In this document: in pieces, positions 19,519 to 20,992 of the stretch | How the letters are laid out: every line of letters begins with the position of its first letter | Position numbering within the stretch: position 1 is the stretch's first letter | Source of the DNA: Thermodesulfobacteriota bacterium | GTDB taxonomy: Bacteria > Desulfobacterota > Desulfarculia > JACQYL01 | Reading direction: 5' to 3' | DNA: 64,000 nt | Assembly (NCBI GenBank): GCA_963675595.2 | Contig: CAXXLZ010000001.1 | Span: 96,001 to 160,000, forward strand | Notes under the pieces: model-generated | Databases searched by the model: none | What the model saw: only the letters and a program-made list of their open reading frames with translations | Told to the model about the DNA's origin: nothing | Position numbers and translations under genes: made by a program

Positions 19519-19772
19519 GTAAGCATTCTCCCCGCCCGCCAACCTGCCCACGGAGGAATCCCGTTCTCGGTTGCGACGCGTAAAGCCGGCAACACGCTCA
19601 AAAAGTTTTGGAAGCAACTGTGTTCTTTGTCAACTGAGTTGTTTGTCACTGATTCCTATGAAGCTGTAACACGGCGCTTGCTAGGCGCGGCACGCGTGGG
19701 GCTGCCGCGCGCAAGCACCGCGCCACAGCAGACCACGGCAGCATCGGTTAACCGATGTGATACATAAACCGG

Positions 19773-20741
19773 TCAACTTAATGTGTCTTTGACACCGATT
19801 TCAGGCTGTTGGACGCGCCAATGAGTATTGGTTTTGACCATGCTGTTCAGTATGGTCAGAAGCTTACGCATACAGGCAGTCATAGCCACTTTGTGCGCTT
19901 TTCCAGCTTTAGTAAGCCGTTGGTAGAAGGCTTTGATTACCGGGTTTGAACGGGTGGCGGACAAGGCGGCCATGTGCAATACGGCCCGAATCTGGGCGCG
20001 GCCTCCCCAAATAGAGCGTTTCCCTCGCATCTTCCCGCTGTCACGATTCAGGGGAGCGACTCCCACCAGGGCGGCGATCTGCTTACGGTTCAATGCCCCG
20101 AGTTCGGGTAAGCGGGTCAGCAGAGTCGAGGAGAGAACGTGTCCCACTCCGGGCACACTTTGAAACAGAGCGTCTTTTTCCCGCCAAATGGGAGATGCCC
20201 GAATCGCCTTGCGGAGTTCCCGGTCCAAGTCCTCAAGGCGCTTCTGGAGCCACGAGATATGGGCCTGGATATCCTTGTGCAGAGAGGAGTGAGCGCTTCG
20301 AAGACGGTTCTTCTCGGCGGTCAACATGGTTATGATTTGTCCACGCCGATCGGCCAGAGCAGTCAGCGCTCGCAGCTGGTCGTCCTTCAAAGGCCGAATT
20401 TGCGGCCGGACAGCCTGGGCGAAATGGGCCAGGACTGTGGCGTCTATGCGATCGGTTTTTGCCAGTATTCCTTTGGCCTTGGCAAAATTACGAACATGTC
20501 GTGCATTGACCACGGTCACATTCAACCCGGCTCCGGCCAAGGCGCTCGCCACCGGAGTCTCAAGCCCACCGGTAGCCTCCAAGACGATCATGGAGGGAGG
20601 AAGATTTTTGAGATGGTTGATTAAAGCATCAAAATCGGTTTCATGGTTGGTCATCGACCAGGCTTCCTCGCCGGGAACGACGGCGATTTCAAGCCGGTCC
20701 TTGGAGACATCGATTCCCACGAAACAGGTGATCTCGCCCAT
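19773..20741 (-). CDS. IS110-family DEDD recombinase/transposase
   Basis: [40 protein letters not shown] 20741 with GAGGAG RBS. Confidence 0.95.
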
Positions 20742-20749
20742 GATAACTC

Positions 20750-20935
20750 CTCTCGTACCCAACCTTGCAGATGCGGCCTTAAAAGGCCGGGCAACTGTAC
20801 GGGTTATCTCGAGGAAGGACATGACGGCCCAAGCTTCCAAACGGAGTCCATTTCTCCTGGGGGTCCGGCGGCCTGTCATGTCCGTGACCAACTTTGCGGG
20901 TCATGCCGTCTTCCATTAAGTATGAAAGATGGCAT
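20750..20935 (-). ncRNA. Predicted IS110 bridge RNA (target- and donor-binding loops)
   Basis: Guides match the flanks: CCGGACCCCC (20868-20859), TTTGGAAG (20841-20834), ACAGTTGCC (20798-20790), TGCAAG (20769-20764), held in stems such as GGACATGAC..GTCATGTCC. Ends approximate. Confidence 0.75.
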
Positions 20936-20947
20936 GCTAAATATACA

Positions 20948-20992
20948 AGGGGTCCGGGAAACCCTTTTTCAAAAGGTTTCTCCGGATATCCC
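20948..20992. repeat. REP-like palindromic repeat (IS110 target half); related copies at 23888-23940 and 53082-53130
   Basis: GGGGTCCGGGAAACCCTTTTTCAAAAGGTTTCTCCGGA is close to the reverse complement of 23888-23930. Confidence 0.7.

Follow-up and report, generated by a model that had tools for sequence, protein, structure and literature searches.

Bridge RNAs of the IS110 family have been described for the insertion sequence (IS) IS621 of Escherichia coli (Durrant et al. 2024, PMC11208160; Hiraizumi et al. 2024, PMC11208158). According to these descriptions, the natural target of IS621, ATCAGGCCTAC, lies in repetitive extragenic palindromic (REP) elements and contains a tolerated mismatch to its guide. 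Two other IS110-family elements, ISPpu9 and ISPpu10 of Pseudomonas putida, are likewise described with several copies in REP-type intergenic repeats. The present analysis concerns a window of 64 kb (the whole stretch of 64,000 nucleotides analysed, from a Thermodesulfobacteriota bacterium) that carries, at 19613..20949 on the minus strand, an element of 1337 bp. With a probability of about 0.93, this element is an intact and autonomous insertion sequence of the IS110 family (IS110 subgroup, IS621-like). An earlier note, made from the letters of this DNA, had attributed to it the architecture of IS621 with a different target. The protein family, the RNA architecture, the guide matches of seven genomic copies, the covariation and the predicted junction promoter all fit this proposal. 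The target is CGGACCC-CT-TCCAAA here and ATCAGGC-CT-AC in the published account of IS621.

The recombinase gene (19773..20741, minus strand) encodes a protein of 322 amino acids that was characterized with Pfam, NCBIfam, the IS621 and ISCro4 structures and invariant alignment columns. It harbors an N-terminal DEDD_Tnp_IS110 domain (PF01548, 2.5e-25, residues 8-150) and a C-terminal Transposase_20 domain (PF02371, 1.4e-18, residues 191-274), and it scores 231.2 bits against the NCBIfam model NF033542 ('IS110 family RNA-guided transposase'), whose cut-off is 140. The closest solved structure is the IS621 transposase (8wt6, E = 4.1e-38, recombinase residues 7-305 aligned); the two proteins are distant in sequence, yet they can be aligned over their full length at E 4e-38. 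The ISCro4 transposase (PDB 9t56), compared by its protein sequence and PDB title alone, gives an about equal full-length match (6.3e-38). Residues D11, E55, D97, D100 and S235, the last within an invariant D-S-G motif, are conserved in all 30 aligned homologues and align with the IS621 motifs holding the residues that are named catalytic in the structure paper (PMC11208158). The domain pair, the catalytic D-E-D-D plus Ser and the CT core are features shared with IS621 as published. At least 8000 homologues of the recombinase were scored and, among the matches listed, the best one outside the source genome is 84% identical. The reading frame is open in all seven genomic copies.

Read on the minus strand, the left junction consists of CCGGACCC (20957-20950), CT (20949-20948) and TGTAT(AT) (20947-20941), and the right junction of ACAGTTG (19621-19615), CT (19614-19613) and TCCAAA (19612-19607). 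Both junctions read as the earlier note had reconstructed them, with CCGGACCC-CT-TCCAAA as target and ACAGTTG-CT-TGTAT as donor, and direct reading of the strand bore out every string and coordinate that it gave. The 1337 bp include the CT core at both junctions (left end, 20948..20949; right end, 19613..19614, both on the minus strand), leaving 1333 bp between the two CTs. A comparison of flanks found CT at both ends in all seven genomic copies; it is the only sequence shared by the junctions, no duplication extending beyond it. None of the 16 inverted-repeat pairs found joins the two ends of the element. In sequencing run X1, a contig of 1343 nt spans 19610-20952 with a depth of 91.7, the flanking contigs having depths of 12.7 and 13.4; the ratio of about 7 fits seven genomic copies. 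The ends are thus fixed independently by this contig, by the lack of end-to-end inverted repeats and by a pyruvyl transferase domain that one copy splits (see below).

The non-coding left end upstream of the gene (208 nt) is predicted to fold into two stem-loops with internal loops that follow a 5' hairpin (-79.6 kcal/mol, z -4.66; 0 of 200 shuffles equally stable). All parts of this predicted bridge RNA lie on the minus strand. The fold places its 5' stem-loop at 20903..20935; likewise, about 33 nt are reported to precede the target-binding loop in the IS621 bridge RNA (PMC11208158). Then come the target-binding loop (20817..20883), made of a stem, the left target guide, an apical hairpin and the right target guide, and the donor-binding loop (20757..20804), both of which are supported by the fold, by covariation and by a covariance model. 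The two stem-loops proposed earlier are recovered in the fold as two internal loops that bear the guides on their 5' and 3' strands. An RNA located upstream of the gene, with a 5' stem-loop followed by target- and donor-binding loops, is also the published arrangement of IS621.

Conservation of this structure was examined in relatives of the element. Eighty loci encoding proteins with 50-66% identity were fetched, mostly from genomes of Dehalococcoidia, Nitrospirota and Methylomirabilota, and the upstream ends of 68 of them were aligned by MAFFT with that of the window element (69 sequences). In this alignment, the structure read from the window element pairs in 88% of cells (versus 32-53% with slid partners), and compensatory changes on both sides affect 18 of 27 base pairs, values that 0 of 500 shuffles reach. 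The outer stem of the target-binding loop shows covariation in eight of its nine pairs. The apical hairpin of this loop reaches only 53% pairing because the MAFFT alignment is displaced by an extra nucleotide in the window element. Forty-two relatives, but not the window element, served to build a covariance model, which has a single match in the 64-kb window, at 20884-20754 on the minus strand, over its full length (98.3 bits, E = 2.5e-20, the E-values being rough owing to a short calibration). A Rfam scan of the region retrieved no bridge-RNA family, but only two sub-threshold chance hits (mir-4659 and c-di-GMP-I-GGC).

The four guides of the window copy are all located on the minus strand. 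The left target guide CCGGACCCCC (20859..20868) runs in the sense of the left flank CCGGACCC-C and covaries with the left flank in relatives, while the right target guide TTTGGAAG (20834..20841) is the reverse complement of CT-TCCAAA and precedes the putative handshake position C (20833). The left donor guide ACAGTTGC (20791..20798) equals ACAGTTG of the right end plus the C of the core, the string with an extra C running to 20790. The right donor guide TGCAAG (20769-20764; extended form AUCUGCAAG, 20764..20772) pairs with CT-TGTA with one G:T wobble and precedes the other handshake position, G (20763). The target guides match their flanks at nine of ten positions on the left and eight of eight on the right, and the donor-loop guides are kept in relatives. 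As in the descriptions of IS621, the left guides are in the top-strand sense and the right guides are complementary to the top strand, the left donor guide spans 7 nt plus the C of the core, and each handshake position pairs with position 7 of the other partner. Two differences from IS621 are found in the target guides. Right target pairing covers the core and up to 6 nt here, the core and 5 nt in most relatives and the core and 2 nt in IS621 as published. The left target guide segment has 10 nt, ends in a run of five C and is 1 nt longer than in relatives; its C faces the core T. All four guides claimed in the earlier note were found in place, but the last C of CCGGACCCCC mismatches the core T. 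Several relatives also have no U opposite this T.

These guide-like strings could be products of chance or a captured REP fragment devoid of any guiding role, as the target is a repeated sequence from which a fragment could be picked up. In 200000 shuffles of the 194-nt RNA, the 6-nt wobble match of the right donor guide alone arose 16714 times (8%). The 9-nt left target match arose in 196 shuffles, the 8-nt right target match in 483 and the 8-nt left donor match in 568; at least two of these three long matches occurred together in only 2. A captured REP copy is also unlikely because one guide has the same sense as its flank and the other is the reverse complement. Furthermore, the same columns covary with the flanks in relatives, as detailed below. 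An origin by chance or capture can therefore hardly be credited.

The covariation between guides and flanks was measured on the relatives. Among the 64 elements whose guides are free of gaps, 44 had a right end that could be located because it exactly matched the left donor guide of the same element. In 42 of these 44, the eight bases that follow agree with the reverse complement of the right target guide at six or more positions, and in 33 at seven or more; in swapped-guide controls, six or more of eight were reached in 87 of 1862 comparisons. A stricter right-end test was passed by 30 of 64 elements versus 13 of 379 swapped pairs. The left end was located by the pattern of the right donor guide in 38 elements, eight of them with several candidates. 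The left target guide and the left flank agree at six or more of nine positions in 25 of the 38 and at seven or more in 16, against 128 and 23 of 1334 swapped controls, respectively. Some of the left-end misses reflect errors of one base in the register of the chosen columns, and others are real off-target sites. When exact 8-mers were required at the left end, they were found in only 2 of 64 elements; scoring boundaries by the highest-scoring of many candidates gave no separation between each element's own guides and the controls, and column-based tests were used instead. Of 44 elements, 43 have C directly after the right target guide, and all 44 have G as the donor base expected to pair with it after strand exchange, an arrangement corresponding to the handshake described for IS621 (PMC11208158). 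In the window element, the corresponding base following the right donor guide is G, opposite the target C.

The members of this clade, hosted by Dehalococcoidia, Nitrospirota, Methylomirabilota and other genomes, share with the window element the bridge-RNA model, the predicted junction promoter and nearly identical donor ends, (A/C)ACAGTTG-CT-TGTAT(C/A)T. They differ by their target guides and flanks and are shorter (about 1.15-1.3 kb). One Dehalococcoidia genome contains three identical copies of a related IS (L045, L046 and L048), each embedded in a larger repeat that continues for about 170 bp beyond the upstream end of the IS and for about 100 bp beyond its downstream end; their left flank fits the guide poorly, so that amplification of another repeat seems to have carried this IS along as a passenger.

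The source genome (6.79 Mb, three contigs) harbors seven full copies of the element with the same length and ends. Five are identical over 1337 bp, one has a single difference and one has 15, all differences being inside the gene. Copies whose flanks would be unrelated to the guides were looked for, and there are none: all seven flanks resemble CCGGACCC-CT-TCCAAA, as the guides predict, and the interpretation given in the earlier note is therefore not refuted. Four copies (L001-L004) lie in one family of REP-like palindromes, with CCCGGACCC-CT (CGGACCC-CT) on their left and CT-TCC(A/T/C/C)AA on their right. Another one (L007) lies in a second REP-like family, between CCGCACCCC-CT (GCACCCC-CT) and CT-TTCAAA. 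The last two occupy unique sequence: L005, between CCGGACCCC-CT (GGACCCC-CT) and CT-TCCGAA, and L006, between CTCGATCCC-CT (CGATCCC-CT) and CT-TCCAAG. The proposal that the target is a host REP-like palindrome thus holds for four copies, with one more in the second family, but not for the two others. The relatives of the palindrome reported at 23888 and 53082 are indeed related palindromes but imperfect targets, CGGGACCC-CT-TGTAAA and CCGGACCC-CC-GCCAAA.

L006 (G000 C2:1017342-1018678) interrupts a gene that encodes a group-1 glycosyltransferase fused to a polysaccharide pyruvyl transferase; the insertion splits the pyruvyl transferase domain, profile positions 1-157 being on one side and 202-280 on the other. 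The other unique-sequence copy is located 12 nt past a D-Ala-D-Ala ligase gene. In this GC-rich genome, stop-to-stop frames across the reconstructed empty sites were uninformative except for L006. In the window, the left half of the interrupted REP-like target (20950..21000, minus strand) has 31 related genomic copies and contains a hairpin that is situated immediately 5' of the left target and also overlaps it; the right half (19560..19612, minus strand) has about 14. No empty site in the genome exactly matches the 16-nt target. The four empty sites with one mismatch are all REP copies in which CA replaces the CT core (C1 near 1171079, minus strand; C2 4117 and 4197134; C2 1028412, minus strand), and all four REP copies with a CT core are occupied by the element. 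This fits a need for the CT core, without proving it.

The association with palindromes raises the question of whether the site might be chosen mainly by the REP hairpin, through recognition of structure or by the protein, the RNA match being a second layer, as in the 'sequence-structure dual match' proposed for ISPpu10. The preprint on ISPpu10 presents a stem-loop located directly 5' of the target as a specificity determinant; this geometry is found at four of the seven sites here, where the same hairpin, overlapping the left target, stands immediately 5' of the copies, and a fifth copy lies in the second REP-like family. ISPpu10 and ISPpu9 are, as described, elements of other hosts with other targets. 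However, the two copies in unique sequence (one within the glycosyltransferase/pyruvyl transferase gene, one past the D-Ala-D-Ala ligase gene) still have CCC-CT-TCC, and guides covary with flanks across relatives whose targets are unrelated. Choice of the site mainly by the hairpin is thus unlikely.

Five insertions fit CGGACCC-CT, whereas CCGGACCCC-CT and CCGCACCCC-CT can be matched only if the guide shifts one base along its C run. The extra nucleotide of the left guide might allow one bridge RNA to read its target in two registers, but this proposal is a doubtful one. Another peculiarity is the right non-coding end of 160 nt, which differs from that of IS621 and carries, between the stop codon of the recombinase gene and the -35 box described below, a near-perfect GC-rich hairpin of 67 nt (19663..19729, minus strand; fold z -5.33). 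In the relatives examined, the right end is much shorter, with a few tens of nt and, in one relative that was read, about 15 nt from stop codon to core. This hairpin may be a terminator, an insulator or a captured palindrome. Two decayed solo remnants of the right end were also noticed (L008, G000 C2:1729086-1729169, and L009, C2:734818-734896). They correspond to the last 80-90 bp, are 92% and 85% identical to the right end and have different left break points; each still ends in ACAGTTG-CT, after which comes CCCAAAGC of a REP copy. A deletion or a partial recombination may have left them behind. These peculiarities (longer guide, slipped sites, right-end hairpin and remnants) are leads and not findings.

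A -35 box, TTGACA (19628..19633, minus strand), is found in the right end, 13 nt before the core, and a -10 box, TATATT (20940..20945, minus strand), in the left end. Of 44 elements, the window element included, 37 have TTGACA or TTGACT at this distance from the core, and the left ends of most relatives begin with TGTAT(C/A)T, TGTATCT or TGTATAT standing at the place of the -10 box. The 17-nt spacer claimed for the junction of these two boxes was recomputed for one retained CT and agrees (15 nt of right end plus TG). No complete sigma-70 site was found on the minus strand of the linear copy. A promoter split across the junction, predicted here, has been described for IS621. The transposition process could be viewed in the following way. 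The element would be released from its site as a circle, its right end joined to its left end through a single CT, which would unite TTGACA with TATATT in a promoter. The latter would drive the synthesis of a bridge RNA of about 185 nt and, downstream, of the recombinase. The donor-binding loop would pair with the element's own junction, ACAGTTG-CT-TGTAT, and the target-binding loop with a site in the chromosome that resembles CCGGACCC-CT-TCCAAA. Strands would then be exchanged at CT by a tetramer of the DEDD/Ser recombinase, which would insert the element with no duplication beyond CT. Transcription, circle formation, catalysis and reprogrammability are all proposed by homology with IS621 (PMC11208160, PMC11208158).

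The copies might instead be inactive relics, either old or multiplied when the DNA around them was duplicated, without transposition. The circle and the RNA are deduced here, no empty perfect target is left in the genome, and the two solo right ends are decayed. But five identical copies, open frames in all seven and flanks that are unrelated among copies outside the REP of about 50 bp do not fit this explanation. In addition, near-identical IS contigs were detected in the runs of two other organisms and in that of a microbial-mat metagenome, two of these runs having zero depth over the immediate flanks of the window locus (such contigs show presence, not absence), and a search of 20 related genomes (two from the same family, two from the same order, 16 from the same class) did not detect the IS body. 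A relic is therefore very unlikely, and the element has evidently been active recently.

Several points weigh against the assignment as an intact, autonomous IS621-like element. As Rfam retrieved no family for the region, the assignment of the RNA depends on the covariance model built here and on published descriptions. The left target guide does not pair with the core T, and its segment has one nucleotide more than in relatives. Left-flank covariation is noisier than that of the right flank, 13 of 38 elements being below six of nine. Three of the seven sites carry 4-5 in-register mismatches to the 16-nt ideal, which suggests that RNA pairing alone may not explain the choice of site. Lastly, activity is deduced from sequence, and the runs were kept as contigs, in which a circle junction or an RNA would not show. 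In the contigs of four runs, neither a joint of 19613 to 20949 nor an exact empty site was seen, rare forms being invisible in contigs; one joint links 19613 to 20955 with six other letters between them and looks like another REP copy. By all the sequence-level tests applied, the element nevertheless belongs to the IS110 subgroup.

In the IS1111 subgroup, the guide RNA (seekRNA) is encoded downstream of the gene and the elements have subterminal inverted repeats. These elements are RNA-guided and encode proteins of the same superfamily. An IS1111 layout was ruled out for the window element, as the RNA-model match is upstream of the gene and no inverted repeat connects the ends. The genome also contains a second IS110-family element of about 1.4 kb, present in eight copies (G000 C2:2474915-2475370 and seven other places) with 28% identity across the Tnp domain. 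Its upstream end is short, its right end measures about 250 nt, and it bears subterminal inverted repeats (TGGCCTCA / TGAGGCCA). This layout is IS1111-like. Most copies of the element are inside the hairpin of a second REP-like family.

In the window, the IS, its REP target and a 150-nt repeat lie between genes at 18255-19286 and about 21060-22586, which, as guessed from their translations, would encode porphobilinogen deaminase-like and uroporphyrinogen methyltransferase/synthase-like proteins. The two flanking genes are about 0.2 kb apart in a genome of the same family. The 150-nt repeat (19366-19526) adjoins the IS target and forms a long imperfect hairpin (z -5.9 on the minus strand). About 140 copies of it were found in the genome and many, with 83-90% identity, in two genomes of the same family; its summed contig depth is very high in all four runs. 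It has no match in Rfam and looks like a miniature inverted-repeat transposable element or a large REP-type element.

Taken together, the element is an ordinary example of the system described in 2024, since its family, RNA, REP targeting, junction promoter and handshake have all been published; REP targeting was already known for IS621, ISPpu9 and ISPpu10, and a hairpin 5' of the site for ISPpu10. To call it a candidate programmable recombinase is fair by analogy, yet this would be equally true of thousands of relatives. All four guides could be recovered from sequence alone by careful reading, and the result is a fully annotated element with a defined natural target, donor and RNA that could be tried as an orthologue for programmable recombination. 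Two-register reading by one bridge RNA, if real, would be a natural register slippage that widens the target range and, together with the remnants and the 67-nt hairpin, a natural test case for off-target or 'half-match' recombination. The impact on the host appears modest: seven copies, one inactivated polysaccharide-modification gene, and every REP copy with a CT core filled.

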